Notes under the pieces: model-generated
Database searches by the model: none
What the model was told of the DNA's origin: nothing
What the model saw: the letters and a program-made list of their open reading frames with translations, nothing else
Shown: positions 6,118 to 62,384 of the stretch, in pieces
Layout of the letters: each line of letters begins with the position of its first letter
Position numbering within the stretch: position 1 is the first letter of the stretch
Translations under genes and position numbers: made by a program
NCBI RefSeq assembly: GCF_036507355.1
Contig: NZ_AP027877.1
Reading direction: 5' to 3' (one strand)
DNA: 64,000 nucleotides
Origin: Escherichia coli
GTDB taxonomy: Bacteria; Pseudomonadota; Gammaproteobacteria; Enterobacterales; Enterobacteriaceae

Positions 6118-6204
6118 AAAAAATAAGCCCGTGTAAGGGAGATTACACAGGCTAAGGAGGTGGTTCCTGGTACAGCTAGCATTTTATGGGTTATGTTTTT
6201 CAGC
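6118..6204 (-). ncRNA. cyaR: CyaR (RyeE) Hfq-dependent small RNA
   Basis: Reverse complement of 6118-6204 reads GCUGAAAAACAUAACCCAUAAAAUGCUAGC...CACGGGCUUAUUUUUU, matching the CyaR sequence as I recall it, with terminal hairpin and U-tail. Confidence 0.85.
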
Positions 6205-6288
6205 GAAACGGATGATAACCTTAATAAATGCAGCTGTATGTGATCGGTTTCTAAGAATTTTCCATCCGGGAAAAATAATCGAAATTAA

Positions 6289-20121: not shown

Positions 20122-20289
20122 TGGAGGAATTATGAAACACTATCGGGAATCGTCTGAATGGCGGGCACATTTGCGAGCACGCATCCAGTAATAACACAGG
20201 AAACTATTTTATCTACGCGTTAGCGATAGACTGCTTGCATGGCGAAAGGAGGTAAGCCGACGATTTCAGCGGGACGCTGAAACGGGAAA

Positions 20290-20440
20290 GCCCCTCCCGA
20301 GGAAGGGGCCATAAATAAGGAAAGGGTCATGATGAAGATACTCATCATCGTGGCGCTCTTAGTGATTAGCTACCCAGCATACTAAGACTACCAGGGCGGG
20401 GGAAACCCCGCTCTACCCTCACTCCTGAAAGTATGCCTTC
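20290..20440 (-). ncRNA. sib: Sib-family antisense sRNA (antitoxin) overlapping ibs copy 1; boundaries approximate
   Basis: By family knowledge Sib RNAs are about 140 nt and fully antisense to ibs; minus-strand hairpin GGCCCCTTCCTCGGGAGGGGC+TTTCCC at 20291-20320 is a candidate terminator. Confidence 0.45.
20329..20385 (+). CDS. ibs: Ibs-family type I toxin peptide (MMKILIIVALLVISYPAY)
   Basis: 18-aa hydrophobic peptide ORF with MMK start and RBS aagg, inside Sib/Ibs repeat unit. Confidence 0.8.
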   Translation: MMKILIIVALLVISYPAY

Positions 20441-20636
20441 ACGTTCAGAATGTCAATCCGCAGGCTTTGCAGTCTGCGATCCTGCCAGCAAATATTCTTT
20501 GCGAGACGTTACGCAATAATCACAGAGGAAACTATTTTGTTCACGCGTTAGCGATAGACTGAATTCAGGGCGAAAGGAGGTAAGCCGACGATTTCAGCGG
20601 GACGCTGAAACGGGAAAGCCCCTCCCGAGGAAGGGG

Positions 20637-20648
20637 CCTTAAATAAGG
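20637..20648 (+). repeat. attL core: 12-bp direct repeat CCTTAAATAAGG flanking the island
   Basis: Identical 12-mer at 20637-20648 and 30686-30697; left copy ends the sib half-unit, right copy directly precedes the ibs RBS. Confidence 0.7.
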
Positions 20649-20721
20649 TAAGTTGCACATTTAAAATCTCTTTAATTATCAATAAACTACAATGTATAGG
20701 TCATTATTAGTCAAAATAAAA

Positions 20722-21621
20722 TCATTTGTTGATTTCAATTTTGTCCCATTCTCTCCCTCGGCTATCCCTATACCGCGCCGCCATTGAATCTGATTTATGT
20801 CCGAGAAGACGTTGAGCAAACTTATCGCCAATCTGATTCCGGTATAGCCTCGCCGACAGGCTACGCAGTTCATGGAATGTTGGTGGGTCTCCATCAAATG
20901 AGAGTCCAGATGCATTTCTCGCCTTTGTAAAATACTTCGATACTGTTTTCGGGGAAAGCGGTTCGTGATGCGTTGAGGCGATTATAGTTTCACTGCCGCT
21001 GGCCTCCCTGCATTTCTGTAGTGTATCAGCCAATGAGATATTGAGCGCGTCAATCGTTAGCATCAGCGGAATGGCGAGCTTAGCCCCTGTTTTACCCTGT
21101 TCAATGTGAAGATGGTTGTCGTTTATGTCTGACCATTTCATTCTGCACAAATCGCCGACTCTCTGCCCTGTAACGACAGCCGAATCCATCGCCAGTCTTA
21201 GCCAGATTGGGAGAGGTTCGGCTGCATGGTAAATCGCGACATACTCATTAGCTGTCAGCCTTGAGCGCCTTACTTCTGACTTTGCTGTGCGGGTTGCTGT
21301 TACCGGATTCGTTTCCACATGCCCCTCGGCTATTGCCTCACGAAAAACGTCAACAAGGGTTGACCTGATTAATTTTGCGGAAGCCGCTTTACCTTCTGCT
21401 ACGTAGGTGTTTAGCATTGCTGCCACCTCTTTCGTTGATATGTCAGCGAGCGGTTTGTCCGGCAATTTTCTTCGGATTGCCCTGATTTTGCTGGCGTAGT
21501 CGAGTAGAGTTTTCGTCCTGATCCCCCTCTCGCTGAGGATTGTTTCATATCGGTCAAGCCACGCATGAAGAGTGATTACGTCAGCGCCTTTAATCCTGTC
21601 TATCAGTGAGGTAGCCTGAGT
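20722..21621 (-). pseudogene. int: Tyrosine recombinase (phage integrase), N-terminally truncated
   Basis: Catalytic-domain motifs present (…HELRSLSARLY…LLGHKSDSMAARYRD…); reading frame continues upstream of the annotated start to 21621 (…SLIDRIKGADVITLHAWLDRYETILSERGIRTKTLLDYASKIRAIRRKLPDKPL) and is cut by an IS3-family fragment. Confidence 0.75.
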
Positions 21622-22120
21622 TTAACGGACACTCCTTCCTGAAATAGAATGGCATCAGAAGGAGCTAATAATGAGCAGAAAAACCCAACGTTACTCTAAA
21701 GAGTTCAAAGCCGAAGCTGTCAGAACGGTTCTTGAAAATCAACTTTCGATCAGTGAAGGCGCTTCCCGATTATCTCTTCCTGAAGGCACTTTAGGACAAT
21801 GGGTTACCGCCGCCAGAAAAGGGCTCGGTACTCCTGGTTCCCGCACGGTGGCTGAACTGGAATCTGAAATTCTGCAACTGCGTAAGGCGTTAAATGAAGC
21901 TCGCCTTGAGCGAGATATATTAAAAAAAGCAACGTATTTTGCACAGGAGTCGCTGAAAAATACGCGTTAATCGAACAATGGCGACAACAATTTCCCATTG
22001 AAGCGATGTGTCAGGTATTTGGTGTATCCAGGAGCGGTTATTACAACTGGGTACAGCATGAACCCTCAGACAGAAAACAAAGTGATGAGCGGCTAAAACT
22101 GGAGATTAAGGTGGCACATA
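21610..22120 (+). mobile_element. IS3-family element, 5' fragment only (orfA plus first about 38 codons of orfB)
   Basis: orfA 21671-21970 plus orfB N-terminus MCQVFGVSRSGYYNWVQ... in -1 frame, homology lost after about 22118; boundaries approximate. Confidence 0.6.
21671..21970 (+). CDS. IS3-family transposase OrfA (HTH)
   Basis: 99-aa ORF MSRKTQRYSKEFKAEAVRTVLE...ERDILKKATYFAQE, typical IS3 OrfA with leucine zipper and A-run slippery site near 3' end. Confidence 0.8.
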   Translation: MSRKTQRYSKEFKAEAVRTVLENQLSISEGASRLSLPEGTLGQWVTAARKGLGTPGSRTVAELESEILQLRKALNEARLERDILKKATYFAQESLKNTR

Positions 22121-22149
22121 CGGTAACAAGCCGATACATGCCACACGCA

Positions 22150-22756
22150 TTACTCACCCTCTTTGATGCGAATGCCAGCGGCGCGTGGCACATTAACTTC
22201 CACGATGCGCACTGTTGGTTTGTACATCTCAATCGCTGTCAGCCAGTCAGCTCCTGTCATGCGCTTTTCCGCATCGCCATTAGTCCACTGAACCGGTACA
22301 CCAATAGCCTTCATCGCGATTTCTATTTCCCCGGCAATGGCGCTTTTTCCGCAACCAGTAAAACCAGAAACAACGACAAGAACTTCACCTTTGGCTGGTT
22401 TTATTTCCCGTGCTTCCAGTTCTGCAATGCGCTTACTTCCATCCGCGATTACTCCCTCGTAATATTCACGCTGCTCGTTGAGTTTTGATTTTGCTGCTTC
22501 AAGCTCAACTCTCAGCTTCCCTACCGTTAGCGCAATATCCTCGTTCTCCTGGTCACGGGATTTGATGTATTGCTGGTTTCTTTCCCGTTCATCCAGAAGC
22601 GCCAGCACGGTTGCCGGATTAGCCTTGGCAACAAAATCACGGACTGGCTTACAATCAATCTCAGCAATGGGTTGATACGATGTGTATCCATGCTGTCTTG
22701 TATAACTACCGTGACGAATAACGAAAAAATCACCATTTATTTTTTTAGCCTGCCAC
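22150..22756 (-). pseudogene. Phage-derived protein fragment with P-loop-like motif (GFTGCGKS); 5' end interrupted by IS1
   Basis: Reading frame runs into IS1 terminal bases at 22757; annotated start codon lies inside IS1. Confidence 0.5.
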
Positions 22757-22771
22757 GGTAATGACTCCAAC

Positions 22772-23275
22772 TTATTGATAGTGTTTTATGTTCAGATAAT
22801 GCCCGATGACTTTGTCATGCAGCTCCACCGATTTTGAGAACGACAGCGACTTCCGTCCCAGCCGTGCCAGGTGCTGCCTCAGATTCAGGTTATGCCGCTC
22901 AATTCGCTGCGTATATCGCTTGCTGATTACGTGCAGCTTTCCCTTCAGGCGGGATTCATACAGCGGCCAGCCATCCGTCATCCATATCACCACGTCAAAG
23001 GGTGACAGCAGGCTCATAAGACGCCCCAGCGTCGCCATCGTGCGTTCACCGAATACGTGCGCAACAACCGTCTTCCGGAGCCTGTCATACGCGTAAAACA
23101 GCCAGCGCTGGCGCGATTTAGCCCCGACATAGCCCCACTGTTCGTCCATTTCCGCGCAGACGATGACGTCACTGCCCGGCTGTATGCGCGAGGTTACCGA
23201 CTGCGGCCTGAGTTTTTTAAGTGACGTAAAATCGTGTTGAGGCCAACGCCCATAATGCGGGCTGTTGCCCGGCAT
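22772..23275 (-). CDS. insB: IS1 InsB
   Basis: 167-aa InsB ORF overlapping insA (frameshift fusion partner). Confidence 0.95.
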
Positions 23276-23469
23276 CCAACGCCATTCATGGCCATATCAA
23301 TGATTTTCTGGTGCGTACCGGGTTGAGAAGCGGTGTAAGTGAACTGCAGTTGCCATGTTTTACGGCAGTGAGAGCAGAGATAGCGCTGATGTCCGGCGGT
23401 GCTTTTGCCGTTACGCACCACCCCGTCAGTAGCTGAACAGGAGGGACAGCTGATAGAAACAGAAGCCAC
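23194..23469 (-). CDS. insA: IS1 InsA
   Basis: 91-aa [43 protein letters not shown]... Confidence 0.95.
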
Positions 23470-23548
23470 TGGAGCACCTCAAAAACACCATCATACACTA
23501 AATCAGTAAGTTGGCAGCATCACCGCCTGCCACGGTAATGACTCCAAC

Positions 23549-24052
23549 TTATTGATAGTGTTTTATGTTCAGATAATGCCCGATGACTTTGTCATGCAGC
23601 TCCACCGATTTTGAGAACGACAGCGACTTCCGTCCCAGCCGTGCCAGGTGCTGCCTCAGATTCAGGTTATGCCGCTCAATTCGCTGCGTATATCGCTTGC
23701 TGATTACGTGCAGCTTTCCCTTCAGGCGGGATTCATACAGCGGCCAGCCATCCGTCATCCATATCACCACGTCAAAGGGTGACAGCAGGCTCATAAGACG
23801 CCCCAGCGTCGCCATCGTGCGTTCACCGAATACGTGCGCAACAACCGTCTTCCGGAGCCTGTCATACGCGTAAAACAGCCAGCGCTGGCGCGATTTAGCC
23901 CCGACATAGCCCCACTGTTCGTCCATTTCCGCGCAGACGATGACGTCACTGCCCGGCTGTATGCGCGAGGTTACCGACTGCGGCCTGAGTTTTTTAAGTG
24001 ACGTAAAATCGTGTTGAGGCCAACGCCCATAATGCGGGCTGTTGCCCGGCAT
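23549..24052 (-). CDS. insB: IS1 InsB (copy 2)
   Basis: Identical to copy 1 InsB. Confidence 0.95.
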
Positions 24053-24246
24053 CCAACGCCATTCATGGCCATATCAATGATTTTCTGGTGCGTACCGGGT
24101 TGAGAAGCGGTGTAAGTGAACTGCAGTTGCCATGTTTTACGGCAGTGAGAGCAGAGATAGCGCTGATGTCCGGCGGTGCTTTTGCCGTTACGCACCACCC
24201 CGTCAGTAGCTGAACAGGAGGGACAGCTGATAGAAACAGAAGCCAC
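23971..24246 (-). CDS. insA: IS1 InsA (copy 2)
   Basis: Identical to copy 1 InsA. Confidence 0.95.
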
Positions 24247-24296
24247 TGGAGCACCTCAAAAACACCATCATACACTAAATCAGTAAGTTGGCAGCA

Positions 24297-25112
24297 TCAC
24301 CCTTCCTTGATTCTTTTTTCTTCTGCTATTCTGGCTTGCTCTTTTGCTTCAGCCTCGCGCCGGATTCGTTCAGCCTCCTCCTGTGCTTTTCTGCGTTCTG
24401 CTTCAATTGCTGCCTGCTTTTCTCTTTCAGCTCGTTCTGCTGCCTCTTTTGCTTCGCGCTGTGCTCTCTGCTCGGCTTCAATGCGTTCACGCTCTGCACG
24501 TTCCGCTGCGGCCTTAGCTTCTGCTTCTCGCCTTGCTGCTGCTTCAATTTCGGCTTTTGCCTTTGCTTCGGCTTCAGCTCTGGCTTTCTCTTCAGCTTCT
24601 CTTTTTAAGCGTTCTTCATGCTCTCGCTTTTCCTGCTCCGCTTTGAGTCTTGCCTCTTCTCTTTGGCGGTCAAATTCGCGATCCATCAAAATCGCTATTT
24701 CATGGTCAGACTCAATTTGCTTTGCGAGAGCTTCAGCTGCTGCCTTAGCTTCTTCTTCGGCTTTAATCCGCGCCTGTTCTTCCTCATAATCAGTAAGAGG
24801 CTGGCGCGCCTTGGCTTTCAGTTCATCAAGGCGATCGCGCACTGTCTTGCGGTTGGCATCAATTAGCTTTGGAATTTCCTTCAGTTCAGCAACAAGGTCT
24901 TTGCCAAGACCATCGAGATATGTTTTCGTCTGCGCAACTTTATACGCCAGAGAAGCGATCTCCTTTCTGCCCTTTGCCGTTGTGATATCAGGCACAAAGG
25001 ACATAACTTCACGTTCAACCTTTTGAAGGATTTCTTCAATCTGGTCGGCAGACTGAAATACAGTCATTGCATTTGCTTTTTCAATAACAACTAAATCTGT
25101 TACTTCACTCAT
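24297..25112 (-). CDS. Phage-associated coiled-coil protein with long K/E/A/R-rich repeat region; 3' end abuts IS1, stop codon created at junction
   Basis: ATG with strong RBS ggagga at 25112; low-complexity EAKAKAE/RREAEAK repeats; frame terminates using IS1 terminal bases. Confidence 0.55.
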   Translation of the reverse strand: MSEVTDLVVIEKANAMTVFQSADQIEEILQKVEREVMSFVPDITTAKGRKEIASLAYKVAQTKTYLDGLGKDLVAELKEIPKLIDANRKTVRDRLDELKAKARQPLTDYEEEQARIKAEEEAKAAAEALAKQIESDHEIAILMDREFDRQREEARLKAEQEKREHEERLKREAEEKARAEAEAKAKAEIEAAARREAEAKAAAERAERERIEAEQRAQREAKEAAERAEREKQAAIEAERRKAQEEAERIRREAEAKEQARIAEEKRIKEG

Positions 25113-25246
25113 ATATCCTCCATCAAAAAAATTGCCCTCACATCGGAGGGCAAAGAAGATTTCCAATAATCAGAACAAGTCGGCTCCTGTTTAGTTACGA
25201 GCGACATTGCTCCGTGTATTCACTCGTTGGAATGAATACACAGTGC

Positions 25247-25450
25247 TTATTCGCGAGCTTTGAGCATTGCGTCTGCAAACTTATATGCAGCGCTTGCTGC
25301 ATAATTAACAGCTCCATCAGAATCATTATCGATAATCGATGGATTGCTAATCATTGCTTGCATAGCCTTAGCAGCGAAGTAATCACGTAATGTCGCATCA
25401 CTTGCCATTTCTGGGCGTTTGATATCTGCTTCATAAAACTCGCACATCAT
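25247..25450 (-). CDS. Small hypothetical phage protein (67 aa)
   Basis: ORF with ATGATG start overlapping stop of an upstream fragment; no family assigned. Confidence 0.4.
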   Translation of the reverse strand: MMCEFYEADIKRPEMASDATLRDYFAAKAMQAMISNPSIIDNDSDGAVNYAASAAYKFADAMLKARE

Positions 25451-25617
25451 TCACCTCCCAGAGCCTTGCTGATTGCTGCAAGACCTTTATTAACAGCTCC
25501 ATACCATTCTGGATATGTTGTCGTTGTTCTATTTTTGGATTGCTTAAGTAATAACTGAAGTGCTTCGAGAAGGTCAGGTGCTGCCGCTATTAGATTGGCA
25601 TCTTCAATACATTGAAC
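25451..25617 (-). pseudogene. C-terminal fragment of a phage gene truncated by IS3-family element
   Basis: In-frame coding sequence ...DANLIAAAPDLLEALQLLLKQSKNRTTTTYPEWYGAVNKGLAAISKALGGE with stop overlapping next ATG; upstream continuation replaced by IS end at 25618. Confidence 0.4.
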
Positions 25618-25674
25618 TGAATCGCCACGGGTTTAACAGACACCTCAGAGTCATTTAAGATGGCTTAAAGAGAG

Positions 25675-25959
25675 GTGCCCATGAGCGGTAAGCGTTATCC
25701 CGAAGAGTTTAAAATTGAAGCAGTCAAACAGGTTGTTGATCGCGGTTATTCTGTTGCCAGCGTTGCAACACGTCTCGATATCACCACCCACAGCCTTTAC
25801 GCCTGGATAAAGAAGTACGGTCCGGATTCTTCCGCTAATAAAGAACAGTCAGATGCTCAGGCCGAGATCCGCCGTCTCCAGAAAGAGCTGAAGCGGGTTA
25901 CCGACGAACGGGACATATTAAAAAAAGCCGCGGCGTACTTCGCAAAGCTGTCCGACTGA
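25675..25959 (+). CDS. IS3-family transposase OrfA
   Basis: 94-aa MPMSGKRYPEEFKIEAVKQVV... HTH plus leucine zipper. Confidence 0.85.
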   Translation: MPMSGKRYPEEFKIEAVKQVVDRGYSVASVATRLDITTHSLYAWIKKYGPDSSANKEQSDAQAEIRRLQKELKRVTDERDILKKAAAYFAKLSD

Positions 25960-26015
25960 GGTACGCCTTTATCCGTGACAACACCTGTTGCTGGCCTGTT
26001 CGCCTGCTCTGTCGG

Positions 26016-26828
26016 GTGCTGGATGTTCATCCCAGTGGTTTTTACGCCTGGCTTCAGCAGCCGCATTCACAACGCCATCAGGCAGACCTGAGGCTGACAG
26101 GGCAGATTAAACAGTTCTGGCTGGAATCGGGATGCGTCTATGGTTATCGCAAAATCCATCTGGATCTGCGGGACAGCGGGCAACAGTGCGGAGTGAACAG
26201 AGTCTGGCGACTGATGAAACGTGTCGGGATAAAGGCTCAGGTCGGATACCGGAGCCCGCGGGCACGTAAAGGCGAGGCCAGTATCGTGTCGCCCAACAGG
26301 CTCCAGCGACAGTTCAATCCGGATGCTCCGGATAAGCGTTGGGTAACGGACATAACCTACATCAGGACCCACGAAGGCTGGCTGTATCTTGCCGTGGTTG
26401 TTGATCTGTTCTCACGCAAAATTATCGGCTGGTCCATGCAATCCCGGATGACAAAGGACATTGTCCTGAACGCACTGCTGATGGCTGTATGGCGCCGTAA
26501 TCCCCAAAAACAGGTGCTGGTTCATTCGGATCAGGGCAGTCAGTACACAAGCCATGAGTGGCAGTCGTTCCTGAAATCACACGGCCTGGATGGCAGCATG
26601 AGCCGTCGCGGTAACTGCCATGATAATGCGGTTGCAGAAAGCTTTTTCCAGTTGTTGAAACGCGAACGGATAAAGAAAAAGATCTACGGAACGCGGGAAG
26701 AAGCCCGCAGCGATATTTTTGATTACATCGAAATGTTTTATAACAGTAAGCGTCGGCATGGTTCCAGCGATCAGATGTCACCGACAGAATATGAAAACCA
26801 GTATTATCAACGGCTCGGAAGTGTCTAG
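26016..26828 (+). CDS. IS3-family transposase OrfB (DDE integrase domain); produced as OrfAB via -1 frameshift
   Basis: 270-aa ORF in -1 frame relative to orfA with DDE-type motifs (…WVTDITYI…HSDQGSQYTS…NAVAESFF…); frame continues back to slippery site. Confidence 0.85.
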   Translation: MLDVHPSGFYAWLQQPHSQRHQADLRLTGQIKQFWLESGCVYGYRKIHLDLRDSGQQCGVNRVWRLMKRVGIKAQVGYRSPRARKGEASIVSPNRLQRQFNPDAPDKRWVTDITYIRTHEGWLYLAVVVDLFSRKIIGWSMQSRMTKDIVLNALLMAVWRRNPQKQVLVHSDQGSQYTSHEWQSFLKSHGLDGSMSRRGNCHDNAVAESFFQLLKRERIKKKIYGTREEARSDIFDYIEMFYNSKRRHGSSDQMSPTEYENQYYQRLGSV

Positions 26829-26847
26829 ATTATCCGTGGCGATTCAA

Positions 26848-27236
26848 TATTGGCCTGATAATTGAAATTGATGACTCAGTATTCAATAATGCATCTAAAT
26901 TCGTAGGTGGTGTTGTTATTCTTGATAATCTAGTTTGTGAATGTAAGACCTATCTCAAAAGAATCGCTTTAAGTCGTATTAGCGGAAGTACTTTTGGCGC
27001 ATTCAACGGAACAGGTCTTACAATTAACGGAGCAAGAGAGATTTACATGGTAAACTCTGGTGGTCATTATAGTAATGACAATGCTATTCACTTAATCAAT
27101 GTGCGTAATAGTGTTTTTTCTGGCAGTAGTTTTACTAACGCTGTGAACTCATGTCTTCTTTTAGATGATTGTCACGACTTAACATTTACCAGTGTGAATG
27201 CTGGTTTTGTAGAGGTATACGAATAATGGCCAACAT
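26848..27236 (+). pseudogene. 3' fragment of a tailspike/beta-helix-like phage gene, truncated by the IS3-family element
   Basis: In-frame translation ...GGVVILDNLVCECKTYLKRIALSRISGSTFGAFNGTGLTINGAREIYMVNSGGHYSNDNAIHLINVRNSVFSGSSFTNAVNSCLLLDDCHDLTFTSVNAGFVEVYE* starts at IS boundary with no start codon. Confidence 0.5.
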
Positions 27237-27534
27237 AACCCCAAAGTATGGGTTCAACATATCAACAGGGTGCACAGGTATTATTTTAGTAGGTTGCACC
27301 AGTGCAGGTAATAGTATTGCAAACATAACTGGTGGCGGTTATGTAGATGGTAGCACTAGAGTATTAGCATGTAATGGCATGCCTGATTCAGTTATTGTTC
27401 TCCGTGGGTCTACTGCGGAGCGCCCTACAGCACCAGTCAGTGGGCAGATGTATTATGATACAACGCTAGGTCTTCCAATATGGTATAACGGCACAGCTTC
27501 ATCATGGCAGCGAGCTGATGGAACAAATACTTGA
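27229..27534 (+). CDS. Small tail-fibre-like protein (102 aa), function unknown
   Basis: ATG overlapping stop of preceding fragment (TAATGG); Gly/Thr/Ser-rich; ends near gtr module. Confidence 0.4.
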   Translation, partial: ANITPKYGFNISTGCTGIILVGCTSAGNSIANITGGGYVDGSTRVLACNGMPDSVIVLRGSTAERPTAPVSGQMYYDTTLGLPIWYNGTASSWQRADGTNT

Positions 27535-27579
27535 TTAATTTATGGCGCATCAATATAAAGTATCGATGCGCCATAATAA

Positions 27580-29067
27580 TCACTGACAAATGTTTTTGTC
27601 AAAATCAACTACAATAATATCATCATATGAGTATAAGTTATATTCATATGCTCTTTTAATCTTTGCGGTTGAGCAAAAGGTTTTTTCATTTAACACACTT
27701 GCAATGTTTGTATTCCCAGGGTGTTTAAAGTAAACTCCAACTCTATTCATATAAGGGAATGGCCAATCCCAATTATAGAAATACTCTGGGAAAAATCTAG
27801 ATATTAACGGGTAATTATTTCGTGCGTTTACAAAAACATCATTGTCTTTCTTTTTACCATTAAAAATAAGTATCTGATTTGTTTTTCCGCTTAACTCGAA
27901 AGCATCATTTTTAATCTGATGAAACAGAACTGTGGTTATGTTTTTTTCTTCTGTCATTGCATTTGTGTATGAACATAAAAAACCAAAAACATAAATCAGA
28001 GGAATTACAAGTATATATGTTATTGAATTTTTTGTTTCTCGCGAGAAAAGATAAACAATCATGAATAAGAACAACATCGTAGCAGAAAAACCGATCATCA
28101 CTCTTGGGGCGTCGATGTGATGCTGAAGTGGTAATAGAGTAGCAAAAGACAATATCAAAGCTGTTACTGGCGATGTTATTGTAATTAAAAAATTAATAAT
28201 ACCAGTAATACTTTTATTAGGTATTAATTTCTTTAGCGCGATAAATGTCGTCATTGCAATGAAAAATAAAAATATTACTATAAACGCAACTCGTCCTGAT
28301 TCCCCAAAAATACCACTAGATATTGAATGAAGATAAAATTTTAAGTTTTCATATATAACTGAAAAAATGCCTTCAGTTTTAATTGATGGGTGATCCGGGT
28401 CCCCAACAACAGTTAAAAATAAAGGAATAACCACCAAAAAATATAATGCAACACCTATAACTAATGATACCGTCTTTTCTATGAGGTAAGTTAATAGATG
28501 TCTGTTACTATCTGAGTTAAAGTACATGTAAACATATTTACACAGAATAATAACCAGCATGAAATTTAATGATGCTTGGTATATAGACAATATAAATAAT
28601 GTTAACAGGGCGGCAAAAGAAATATTTAAAATTGTCTTTTTGAAATTAAATATTACAACTGAGAATGACAATGCAATACTCATGAACATCGGTAAAACAT
28701 CAAAGCGATACATTGCATTTTCAATTAAAAATGGGCTTGATAAAATACCAAGAGGAACCAACAGTCCAATAAATTTATTATCTGTCGATATAAACATCCT
28801 GCTAAAAAAATACAGGCAAACAGATATCAAAAATACTGATAATATTGCAGGAAATGGGAATAAGTCCGTTATGTGCATGTTGAAATTCAATGCAATCATC
28901 AACATTTCAGCCAAAGGTCTACCATCCCTAGCCCATCCAGTATACCCCCATATAGCTCTTCCCTGATCATCTACATAATGAATATTTGCCATGATGATGG
29001 GGGTGAAATATATAAAAACAGATATCAAGAACCAATGGAAAGGTGTTTTGTTTTTATTTGCAATCAT
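27580..29067 (-). CDS. GtrC-like type-specific O-antigen glucosyltransferase (polytopic membrane protein)
   Basis: 495-aa ORF, multiple TM helices, strongly AT-rich, immediately downstream of gtrB with overlapping stop/start. Confidence 0.7.
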
Positions 29068-29983
29068 TTTTCTGATCCTTTAAAACATATCTTGGGCGCT
29101 GCTTAACTTCAATATAAATACGTCCTATGTACTCTCCAAGTACACCAATACCAATTAGTTGTACGCCGCCAAGAAACAATATTGATACAAGAATTGAAGG
29201 GTATCCAGGTACATTATTACCAAAAATCAATTTATCAATTATCATCCATGAACCGTATGTAAATGATATACATGCAATAAATAACCCAATATAGGTCCAC
29301 ATGCGAAGCGGGAAAGTAGAAAAGCTAGTGATCCCTTCCAGCGCCAAGTTCCATAGCTTCCATCCATTGAACTTTGTGCTTCCTGCAACGCGTTCTGCTC
29401 GCGCATATTCTACGACATCGGTTCGACCACCAACCCAGCTCAGCACACCCTTCATAAACAGGTTTCGTTCTGGCATGAGCTTAATGTTTTCTACTACTTC
29501 GCGAGACATGAGCCGGAAGTCGCCAACATTCTCTTCTATCTGAGGGTTGCTGATTTTGTTATGAAGTTTATAGAACCACTCAGCAGATTTACGCTTCAGC
29601 CTGCTGTCAGTGGAGCGGTCAGAGCGTTTAGCCAGAACCATATCTGCACCGGCCTGCCATTTCTCTATCAAGTGAGGAATAACTTCGATAGGGTCTTGCA
29701 GATCAACGTCAATCGGGATAATTGCCTCCCCGGTAGCATGGTCCAGACCTGCGAACAGGGCGGGTTCTTTGCCGAAGTTACGTGTGAACGACAGCGAAAC
29801 CACAAGCGGGTCGGCAACAGCAAGCTCGTTGATAATTGATTCTGTAGCGTCTTTGCTGCCATCGTTTATGAAGACTATCTCGACTTCATGCTGCTGAAGC
29901 CCTTCAAATTCGCGCACGGTTTTATAAAAAATAGGTATCGTGGCCTCTTCGTTAAAGACCGGAACGACTAAAGAAATTTTCAT
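29054..29983 (-). CDS. gtrB: GtrB bactoprenol glucosyltransferase (GT2 family)
   Basis: 309-aa [16 protein letters not shown]...[10 protein letters not shown]...C-terminal TM helices; matches conserved GtrB. Confidence 0.9.
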
Positions 29984-30342
29984 TTCGCATCCCTAAAGAC
30001 AATGAACTTTGAATAGATGAAACCGCACACCAGGCTGATGGCGGAGAAGGTGACAAGAGTTATCATCGGGGGAAGTGCGCATCTATCAGCAGCCCATCCA
30101 ACAGTAGCACTGAGTGTTCCCATGAACCCGACATATAACATGTAGCGCATCGTTGTAGTTGATGCTTTGAATGTGAATTTTGCATTCGCGAAGAAGCTAA
30201 AACTCACAGCCACAACGAAACCTGCGAAGTTTGCCAGAGCCTGATTGGTATGCGCGGCATAGATACATACACCAAAAACCACCCAGTGTATAAGTGTGTT
30301 CAGCACACCAATCGAGGTGTACCTTGCAAATATATTTAACAT
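29980..30342 (-). CDS. gtrA: GtrA flippase (small 4-TM protein)
   Basis: 120-aa [31 protein letters not shown]...; overlaps gtrB start. Confidence 0.9.
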
Positions 30343-30685
30343 TTATTTAATCAATGAGTTCTGAAAGGTATGAAGTCTATCATCCAAGTCTCAATCGATC
30401 GATACTTGCGGTAGTTGATGAGGAAAACTCTGGTACACAAAGCTTTGCACTGGACTGCAAGGTGTTGTGCTTCTCTGGAGTGCGACATGTTTGATAACAA
30501 AAAATTAGCGCAAGAAGACAAAAAATCACCTTGCGCTAATGCTCTGTTACAGGTCACTAATACCATCTAAGTGGTTGATTCATAGTGACTGGATATGTTG
30601 TGTTTTGTCGCATTTTGCAGTCTATTATTTAACCGCGAATTCGTGTAATGCGATGATTTTTAAGTGATTAATATTATTTTGTCAT

Positions 30686-30697
30686 CCTTAAATAAGG
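30686..30697 (+). repeat. attR core: 12-bp direct repeat CCTTAAATAAGG
   Basis: Identical to 20637-20648; followed by aaagggtcATGATG of ibs. Confidence 0.7.
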
Positions 30698-30705
30698 AAA
30701 GGGTC

Positions 30706-30762
30706 ATGATGAAGTGGATCATCATCGTGGTGCTCTTAGTCATAAGCTTCCCGGCTTACTAA
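30706..30762 (+). CDS. ibs: Ibs-family type I toxin peptide (MMKWIIIVVLLVISFPAY), right half of the unit split by the island
   Basis: 18-aa hydrophobic ORF; upstream repeat-unit sequence replaced by island DNA. Confidence 0.75.
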   Translation: MMKWIIIVVLLVISFPAY

Positions 30763-30994
30763 GACTACCAGGGCGGGGGAAACCCCGCTCTACCCTCACT
30801 CCTGAAAGTATGCCTTCACGATAAGATTGTCAATCTGCAGGCTTTGCAGTCTGCGATCCTGCCAGCAAATATTCTTTGCGAGTCGTTACGCAATAATCAC
30901 AGAGGGAACTATTTTGTTCACGCGTTAGCGATAGACTGCATTCAGGGCGAAAGGAGGTAAGCCGACGATTTCAGCGGGACGCTGAAACGGGGAA

Positions 30995-31145
30995 CCCTCT
31001 CCCGGAGAAGAGGGCTTTTAATAAGGAAAGGGTTATGATGAAGCACGTCATCATACTGGTGATACTCTTAGTGATTAGCTTCCAGGCTTACTAAGAACAC
31101 CAGGGGGAGGGGGAAACCTCTCCCTAACCCTCACTCCTGAAATTA
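30995..31145 (-). ncRNA. sib: Sib-family antisense sRNA overlapping ibs copy 3; boundaries approximate
   Basis: Same unit architecture as 20290-20440, with hairpin gggaaccctctcccggagaagagggc upstream of the ibs RBS. Confidence 0.4.
31035..31094 (+). CDS. ibs: Ibs-family type I toxin peptide (MMKHVIILVILLVISFQAY)
   Basis: 19-aa hydrophobic ORF within complete repeat unit 3. Confidence 0.8.
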   Translation: MMKHVIILVILLVISFQAY

Positions 31146-31314
31146 TGTCACTCCGCCCTTAGTGTCAATCGACGGCTCTCCGTTCTTGCGAGGCGAATAG
31201 CAAAATTTTCTGCGCCGCCGGGACTAATTCTGAAAGTTTCTTCGTTTGCTCTTATTTCATTATTGCAGTCGGTATGATACCGGACCTTAATAATTCTCTA
31301 AGAAAGGATTTCTT

Positions 31315-47372: not shown

Positions 47373-47840
47373 AGTAAGTACAAAACCTATTCGTTGTATG
47401 ACAAATGTCACAATTCGATCATGGATAAATCGGGGCAAAAATGCAATGTTGCAGCACTATTTATCTCATATTATTTGAGGACAATAACCTCACATTATCC
47501 CTGAATTAAAAGTGGTAATAATAAAACATTATTTAAGAAATATCGCATGTGGAGACGCAATATTAAATATTGTCAACCTAAAGAAACTCCTAAAAACCAT
47601 ATTGAATGACACTTAATATAATTCTTAAAAATAGCCAATTGCCGAATTGTTACCTTGCCTGCTATTCCGTTAGCTGTAACACTTCCTCCTGCATTATTGG
47701 AGAGCCAATATTCAATTACCATAATGTCACCTTATATTCGGAAGTTAATTTCCGCAATAACCCTTTCTCATCAACGACTGTATGTTGAGAGGGTTTTAAA
47801 AATTAAGCTAAATCAGTGTATTGGTAGCTAAAAAGCCAGG

Positions 47841-47852
47841 GGCGGTAGCGTG
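47841..47852 (+). promoter_or_regulatory. ops element (GGCGGTAGCGTG) within JUMPstart in the wza leader
   Basis: Exact match to the RfaH-recruiting ops consensus GGCGGTAGnnTG about 180 bp upstream of wza. Confidence 0.75.
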
Positions 47853-62330: not shown

Positions 62331-62384
62331 ATAAAATTGGCCGCTTCGGTCAGGGCCAACTATTGCCTGAAAAAGGGTAACGAT

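Follow-up and report, generated by a model that had tools for sequence, protein, structure and literature searches.

What becomes of a toxin gene and its antisense RNA when an insertion parts the two halves of the unit they share? The question is raised by a stretch of Escherichia coli DNA (64,000 nucleotides of contig NZ_AP027877.1, hereafter the window) in which one copy of a type I toxin-antitoxin repeat, consisting of an ibs gene and the opposing Sib RNA gene, is found in two pieces on either side of an island.

The sib/ibs locus and its split unit

The intergenic region between mdtA and yegL in the window is the sib/ibs locus of E. coli and holds three units. The Rfam SIB_RNA model (RF00113) matches it three times on the minus strand, at 20314-20456, 30691-30833 and 31020-31168, with scores of 136-150 bits. 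Unit 1, proximal to mdtA, is intact and provided the reference for an unbroken unit. Its Sib gene, which yields the first of the Rfam matches, spans 20285-20420 on the minus strand, the ends being set by homology to RefSeq K-12 sibB, and its ibs ORF (20329-20385, plus strand) translates to MMKILIIVALLVISYPAY followed by a stop. Unit 3, proximal to yegL and of the sibA type, is also intact, with Sib at 30990-31132 on the minus strand (149.5 bits with the Rfam model; alignment to K-12 sibA) and an ibs ORF at 31035-31094 on the plus strand, whose product is MMKHVIILVILLVISFQAY up to the stop. Elsewhere in the window, Rfam models match CyaR/RyeE (6121-6206, minus strand), JUMPstart (47814-47852, plus strand) and the algC RNA motif (62331-62380, plus strand), an arrangement that fits the E. 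coli neighbourhood cyaR...mdtA-sib-yegL...wza/wca.

The middle unit is split. Alignments showed that its upstream part, a left half-unit at 20444-20648 that ends in attL, follows the repeat through a 12-bp sequence, CCTTAAATAAGG (20637-20648), and diverges right after it. The same 12 bp are found again at 30686-30697, where the other half begins. There, the match to the sib/ibs repeat upstream of the ibs ATG amounts to these 12 bp and 8 additional nt (30698-30705), and sequences further left belong to the island. Joining 20648 to 30698 restores a unit colinear with K-12 sibB/ibsB, the alignment containing no insertions or deletions. The first-pass annotation of this DNA had placed island sequences upstream of the ibs ORF at 30706-30762 and had described the left half-unit as devoid of an ibs ORF. 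Both statements are borne out, the former to the base, with the island edge 8 nt away, and the latter by the point at which the repeat match stops.

The ibs ORF of the split unit (30706-30762, plus strand) is itself intact. It runs from ATGATGAAGTGG to TACTAA, encodes the 18 residues MMKWIIIVVLLVISFPAY before the stop and is preceded by a Shine-Dalgarno sequence, thus displaying the short hydrophobic ORF (18-19 aa) and the Shine-Dalgarno that are features of Ibs/Sib modules; it has been separated from its own promoter and from ~55 nt at the start of the 5′ UTR. The identity of the peptide is supported by a draft assembly in which the identical 18-aa gene call, at the same junction, matches Pfam family PF13956 (Ibs_toxin). 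Opposite to the ORF, the antisense Sib promoter and 5′ body are present (RF00113, 30691-30833, 140.1 bits). The Sib 3′ terminator hairpin is not contiguous with the split gene and lies 10 kb away (20613-20642). The ibs promoter, start and 5′ UTR are likewise detached from the ORF, with 20593-20594 as the counterpart of the mapped ibsC/D +1 position. Judged by its sequence, the split copy is a broken member of the Ibs/Sib family, having lost two of the defining features tested, the contiguous Sib terminator and the contiguous ibs promoter.

The full-length RF00113 match at 30691-30833 could be mistaken for an intact small RNA gene. This reading was rejected upon running the model on K-12, where the matches (976-1124 and 1311-1453) are offset from the annotated sibA (1012-1155) and sibB (1347-1482). 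In K-12, the model extends from the −35 TTGACA box to the CCUUAUU sequence (positions −36 to ~+107) and ends ~30 nt before the annotated Sib 3′ end, leaving out the terminator hairpin. Since RF00113 gives a full-length match without the terminator, automated annotation will call the split Sib gene intact. A full-length SIB_RNA match is thus no proof of an intact gene, which represents a practical annotation trap.

The prophage remnant and its attachment site

The island separating the two halves (20649-30685; 10,037 bp) is recognizable as a degraded lambdoid prophage remnant of the HK022 type. Adjoining attL is a gene for a tyrosine integrase close to HK022 Int (20725-21609, minus strand). The gene is truncated, corresponding to residues 63-357 of HK022 Int (95.6% identity by tblastn; 95% over 247 aa, residues 111-357, by BLASTP), and its N-terminal part was lost to an IS element. 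The interior (21610-27579) is riddled with insertion sequences, comprising fragments of the IS3 family and two tandem IS1 copies besides phage ORFs of unknown function and a fragment of a virion protein gene. The IS1 pair (22748-23524 and 23525-24301) is a perfect 777-bp tandem duplication in head-to-tail orientation (768 bp + 9 bp). The right part of the island is occupied by a gtrC-gtrB-gtrA operon for O-antigen glucosylation (27580-30342, minus strand), which reads away from attR. The operon was identified from the annotation of 99% identical E. coli DNA and from NCBIfam and PHROG matches, and its products match the Pfam families GtrA_DPMS_TM, Glycos_transf_2 and Glucos_trans_II. A Shigella origin, which the load of insertion sequences might suggest, is not supported, since the exact GtrC sequence of the island exists as an E. 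coli RefSeq protein. Adjoining gtrC, the segment 27169-27534 (plus strand) matches a phage virion structural protein (phrog_20787) and is likely what is left of the tailspike or tail gene normally found ahead of gtr operons. A 71-aa ORF (30351-30566, minus strand), which overlaps the hairpin region of the tI terminator (see below) and has no match in NCBIfam or PHROG, is probably not a gene. The attR-gtr arrangement is common to three draft assemblies; among the complete E. coli genomes of the collection, none contained the whole island. The split is fixed, IS elements having removed the N-terminus of int and most of the prophage genome.

Both junctions have the structure of attachment sites. 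The attL core (20635-20655) is composed of a B arm, GGCCTTA, a 7-bp overlap, AATAAGG, and a C′ arm, TAAGTTG, the last being identical to its counterpart in HK022 attP. In the attR core (30684-30704), the same overlap is flanked by C (ATCCTTA) and B′ (AAAGGGT), and the 12-bp direct repeat is at 30686-30697. An HK022-type P′ arm (20649-20724, minus strand; 95% identity to HK022) extends from attL, and a P arm of the lambda/HK022 type (30431-30690) from attR. When attP is rebuilt by placing the right end of the island before its left end, the resulting sequence is ~93% identical to HK022 attP in both arms. The core-type sites, C ATCCTT[A/T] and C′ TAAGTTG, are common to HK022 and the island, and the only wholesale difference resides in the overlap, which is AGGTGAA in HK022 and AATAAGG, identically at attL and attR, here. 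The attB within the sib unit, GGCCTTA-AATAAGG-AAAGGGT, is flanked by the Sib terminator hairpin on one side and the ibs Shine-Dalgarno sequence on the other. Its half-sites, GGCCTTA and AAAGGGT (reverse complement ACCCTTT), fit the CTT(T/A) pattern of HK022, and GGCCTTAAATAAGGAAAGGGT would be the matching host partner for an attP with the AATAAGG overlap.

The canonical AGGTGAA overlap and the torS-torT attB of HK022 are absent, the site here being between mdtA and yegL; on these grounds, the element is best described as a site-affinity variant and not HK022 itself. HK022 attB is a 21-bp B-O-B′ sequence in which O may be any sequence, provided that it is the same in both partners (PMC7736782). 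The Int protein of a prophage at the sib site of strain MFDS1001074 is 98% identical to that of Stx1a phages inserted at the canonical AGGTGAA site. Because integrases this similar are found at two sites, we infer that the overlap, rather than the protein, sets the new site, and that the element would be the natural equivalent of a site-affinity mutant, in which HK022 Int is retargeted by a 7-bp overlap change. The existence of ~90 independent occupied sites indirectly supports the ability of Int to recombine AATAAGG sites.

We are thus fairly confident that the DNA preceding the ibs ORF is the attR junction of a degraded lambdoid prophage lying in the middle unit, and that conservative site-specific recombination severed both ibs and Sib. 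An HK022-type Int, acting on sites with the AATAAGG overlap, would have moved the attachment site from torS-torT into a sib/ibs unit. Convergent transcription of ibs and Sib through the same ~140 bp means that a single crossover is enough to sever the two. It would have left the ibs promoter, start and ~55 nt of 5′ UTR at attL along with the Sib terminator hairpin, and the ibs Shine-Dalgarno and ORF at attR along with the Sib promoter and the first ~110 nt of Sib.

The many IS1 and IS3-family copies in the island and the tandem-repeat nature of the locus could point to an IS-mediated rearrangement, or to homologous recombination between sib repeats, as the origin of the split in place of integrase action. 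Such an origin is hardly credible and, on the structure of the junctions, can be regarded as effectively refuted. The two junctions are exact HK022-type attL and attR sites sharing a 7-bp overlap; when rejoined, they give a perfect attB and a perfect attP, and neither is abutted by an IS end. Moreover, the same junctions exist in ~90 other genomes, in one of them with a near-complete lambdoid prophage.

Recurrence was assessed with junction-spanning queries against 5,426 complete E. coli genomes, in which the attL-type junction was found 84 times and the attR-type junction 91 times. These counts, added to the three SIB_RNA scores of 136-150 bits, argue that the matches at the locus are not due to chance. 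At every occupied locus inspected, the insertion was between mdtA and yegL, with the AATAAGG overlap and the same core sites, in independent genomes. At the same sib site, NZ_CP148427.1 (4,167,000-4,216,900) harbours a lambdoid prophage of near full length that encodes NleG, and NZ_CP106929.1 a remnant carrying espJ, nleG and cif. Cargo thus varies from one prophage at the site to another, the remnant in the window carrying gtrABC and the others genes for type III secretion effectors. In NZ_CP010134.1 (E. coli D1), attR (4,885,204) and attL (3,438,699) are 1.45 Mb apart in opposite orientation, pointing to a large inversion or rearrangement by way of the prophage. Neither isolated phages, where the best attP matches were to HK022 and mEp235 (both with the AGGTGAA overlap), nor IMG/VR or JGI metagenome contigs (0 exact matches) yielded a free attP with the AATAAGG overlap. 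Likewise, a search of the literature for prophage integration at ibs, sib, yegL or mdtA returned no description of this attachment site.

The B arm is polymorphic, the split unit having GGCCTTA (20635-20641) and unit 1 GGCCATA (20307-20313). As an exact 43-mer, the empty attB with GGCCTTA occurs in at least 4,434 of the 5,426 genomes, and the GGCCATA allele, known from K-12 sibB, in 2,271. The occupied sites that were sampled all had the T allele. Since T makes a better CTT half-site of the HK022 type, this allele may decide which units are targeted. The idea that the T had been donated by the phage was discarded, given the number of genomes (at least 4,434) with an uninterrupted T allele.

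Predicted fate of the Sib and ibs transcripts

According to the first-pass annotation, the outcome hinges on where the ibs promoter and Sib terminator are located, the copy being either promoterless or giving rise to an altered Sib RNA that reads into the island. The positions of the Sib and ibs ends were taken from Han 2010 (PMC2943612), from a 2026 paper on sibD (PMC12956327) and from RefSeq K-12. The K-12 annotation and the published end-mapping place both signals in the left half. By homology, the Sib terminator and the ibs start fall in that half and not within 30698-30800, the retained right-hand segment in which, according to the first-pass annotation, all signals would have to map for its reading to be refuted. 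The two proposed outcomes would thus apply at once, as far as the transcripts can be predicted.

The Sib promoter of the split unit (30805-30833, minus strand) is identical to that of K-12 sibB and consists of a −35 TTGACA (30833-30828), a 17-nt spacer and a −10 TACTTT (30810-30805); a 35-bp minimal promoter suffices for expression of sibD (PMC12956327). The retained 5′ part of Sib is 112 nt long (30686-30797, minus strand), and its first nucleotide, 30797, matches the K-12 sibB start (GAGGGTAGAGCGGGG). In RefSeq K-12, sibA and sibB both end in a GC-rich hairpin, ...GGGAGGGGCUUUCC, upstream of the ibs Shine-Dalgarno, and the 3′ primers and probe used for SibC and SibD end in the same hairpin (Han 2010, PMC2943612). 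The corresponding 3′ end in the window (GGCCCCUUCCUCGGGAGGGGCUUUCC; 20613-20648, minus strand; hairpin 20613-20642, RNAfold −19.3 kcal/mol) is orphaned and now lies downstream of int and the P′ arm. RACE analysis of SibD yielded a full length of 145 nt and only ~10% of transcripts in a 3′-truncated form (PMC12956327). As the full-length form dominates, most Sib transcripts should cross the junction.

The first terminator that such transcripts would encounter is a lambda-type tI terminator, the hairpin of the sib retroregulator (30499-30539, minus strand), with stems at 30530-30539 and 30505-30514, a U6 tract at 30499-30504 and a folding energy of −27.6 kcal/mol (RNAfold). The surrounding segment, 30431-30631, is 91% identical to the tI region of lambda (27470-27669). 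In alignments with the lambda hairpin and with the feature annotated as "Transcription terminator tI" in phage O276, the stems are invariant; the conserved hairpin and U tract that characterize tI/sib in the P arm of lambda, on the int-sense strand, are thus present. (The name shared by the lambda sib site and the host antitoxin RNA Sib is coincidental.) Read-through from Sib should therefore stop at tI, ~190 nt into the island. The predicted product is a chimeric RNA of ~300 nt (30496-30797, minus strand) joining the 5′ part of Sib to the P arm of attR and to tI; it is deduced from the Sib promoter, the absence of the native terminator and the fact that tI is the first terminator downstream. 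This RNA would start at an unaltered promoter, lack the native terminator with its ProQ-binding hairpin and run through the P arm; it would keep full complementarity to ibs and have a different 3′ hairpin. The change may matter because ProQ recognises the SibB terminator hairpin (PMC10168233). Since tI lies upstream of gtrA, it should shield gtrABC from Sib read-through.

Alternatively, Sib might be essentially unaffected, if the RNA ended or were processed at ~+110, following the AUGAUGA...UCAUCAU hairpin and CCUUAUUU, making the loss of the GC hairpin a minor event. A truncated species missing ~30 nt at the 3′ end, a minor form of ~110 nt, has indeed been described (PMC2943612; PMC12956327), SibC derivatives with heterologous terminators still repress ibsC (PMC2943612), and the Rfam model stops at the same point. 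The truncated form was, however, seen when Sib was highly expressed (Han 2010, PMC2943612) and, as mentioned, represents a tenth or so of SibD transcripts (~10%; PMC12956327). Furthermore, the AU-rich hairpin, followed by an interrupted U tract, was not picked up as terminator-like in our scan, and both the K-12 annotation and the RACE data (PMC12956327) set the main 3′ end after the GC hairpin. We thus view an unaffected Sib as rather unlikely and retain the chimeric RNA as the predicted product, although the split copy might still give rise to some of the ~110-nt form.

Turning to ibs, T7 templates place the +1 of ibsC and ibsD 60-65 nt upstream of the ATG, beyond the hairpin (Han 2010, PMC2943612). 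In a multiple alignment, the ibsC +1 (GCAGCATGGGGCTG) and the ibsD +1 (GTCAGCAGGGGGCTG) align to tTCAGCGGGACGCTG at 20593-20594 (plus strand). This predicted start is now orphaned, pointing into the P′ arm and the antisense strand of int. The start has been mapped for ibsC and ibsD only, and the promoter regions of ibsA/B-type units do not align with theirs. In the ibsA/B-type unit, the candidate −10 is a poor TAAGCC. Because of this, and because the mapped promoters cannot be aligned, native expression of ibs from an ibsA/B-type unit may already be very low. Whatever the mapping, no native ibs promoter can be present at attR, as only 8 host nt precede the ATG. The split ibs copy, having neither its native promoter nor its structured leader, is probably silent.

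A consensus promoter scan of the ibs strand near the junction gave no match. The same scan misses the native ibs promoter, so this absence of a strong match is uninformative. A looser scan of the plus strand (30629-30677), in the P arm facing ibs, returned only weak sites matching 8 of 12 positions: ATGCGA-18-TATTAT, ending at 30677, and TTAACC-17-TGnGATGAT, ending at 30657. Conceivably, a fortuitous or evolved promoter of this kind has re-wired ibs, producing an mRNA with a leader of 20-40 nt devoid of the native structured 5′ UTR. The two −10 elements do lie directly upstream of the gene, the TATTAT of the first site reads TGTTAT in HK022, and a phage-borne HK022 promoter without recognisable −10 and −35 elements is known to drive a flanking host gene (PMC6814406). 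Against this, the −35 elements of both sites are poor, the documented outward promoter of HK022 is in the P′ arm at attL and not in the P arm, and torT, on the attR side, is unaffected by HK022 (PMC6814406). In addition, such an mRNA would still be fully complementary to the Sib RNA made from the intact opposing promoter. We deem re-wiring unlikely and favour a promoterless ibs gene.

On the attL side, the outward promoter of HK022, which lies in the P′ arm, drives torS (PMC6814406). In the window, a scan picked out a minus-strand sequence in the P′ arm that resembles a promoter, ATGACC-18-GATAAT (20704 to 20675), and faces the orphan Sib terminator (20613-20642). A transcript from this site would run straight into the terminator and yield only a very short RNA. 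The orphan terminator would have come to lie just downstream of int and of an HK022-type outward promoter.

A broader scheme can be imagined, which we regard as a long shot. An HK022-type phage lineage, with several members carrying type III secretion effectors or gtr, would have gained an overlap targeting sib/ibs, and the exchange of 3′ ends would be functional. Two RNAs would be made in the lysogen, a new ~300-nt Sib-attR-tI species and a short one that starts in the P′ arm and ends at the Sib terminator. One of the toxin copies would be disarmed or re-wired. Constitutive Sib transcription across the P arm of attR would, with the host terminator behind int, change prophage excision or the expression of int. 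Which E. coli strains can be lysogenised at this site would depend on the common A/T polymorphism of the B arm.

Significance and comparison with known systems

These observations show that lambdoid prophages have repeatedly inserted into a type I toxin-antitoxin repeat, with ~1.6% of the complete E. coli genomes having this attachment site occupied. With ibs and Sib overlapping, a single crossover uncouples both genes at once. The locus offers a natural case of HK022 Int retargeting by a 7-bp overlap, a property exploited in genome engineering, and leads to the prediction of a chimeric host-phage small RNA, which is easily testable. In other respects, this is a tidy and fairly ordinary instance of a prophage rewiring a host locus, namely an HK022-family integration with a variant overlap and a new attB.

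HK022 integrates at an attB between torS and torT, as reportedly described by Yagil in 1989. The best-documented parallel is provided by the effect of HK022 on this locus (Carey et al. 2019, PMC6814406). The integrases are 95-96% identical, the P and P′ arms and the core-binding sites are the same, and in both cases a host gene is parted from its native promoter while phage signals are placed beside it. The two systems differ in the overlap and attB, AGGTGAA and torS-torT for HK022 versus AATAAGG and a sib/ibs repeat here. They also differ in that the target here is a convergent sense/antisense pair, so that a promoter and a terminator are both displaced. The effect on expression of the host genes is, in our case, a predicted one.

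The arrangement also evokes the retroregulation of lambda int by sib (tI), in which integration parts int from the sib site beyond attP. As in lambda, ~150-190 nt separate the conserved tI/sib hairpin of the P arm from the core, and in the prophage the hairpin is found at attR, away from int. Unlike in lambda, a host promoter, that of Sib, reads into tI from outside the prophage. As a result of the exchange, the host antitoxin RNA is predicted to gain a phage terminator, and int gains the Sib terminator of the host.

Phages and islands also integrate into the 3′ end of tRNA, tmRNA or small RNA genes, as seen with P4-type elements at tRNA genes, CP4-57 at ssrA and P2-like remnants at cyaR. Such elements usually carry a copy of the 3′ end of the gene, so that the RNA is restored. 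Here too, recombination took place in the 3′ portion of a small RNA gene, but the shared sequence is limited to 12 bp and does not bring back the terminator hairpin.

Finally, K-12 sibB/ibsB (Fozo 2008; Han 2010, PMC2943612) is near-identical to each half of the split unit: to the right half over the Sib promoter, Sib positions +1 to +112 and the ibs ORF with its Shine-Dalgarno, and to the left half over the ibs 5′ UTR and the Sib terminator. The 18-aa Ibs peptide of the window differs from that of K-12 ibsB at two residues and the B arm reads GGCCTTA instead of GGCCATA, whereas the halves that adjoin in K-12 are 10 kb apart here.
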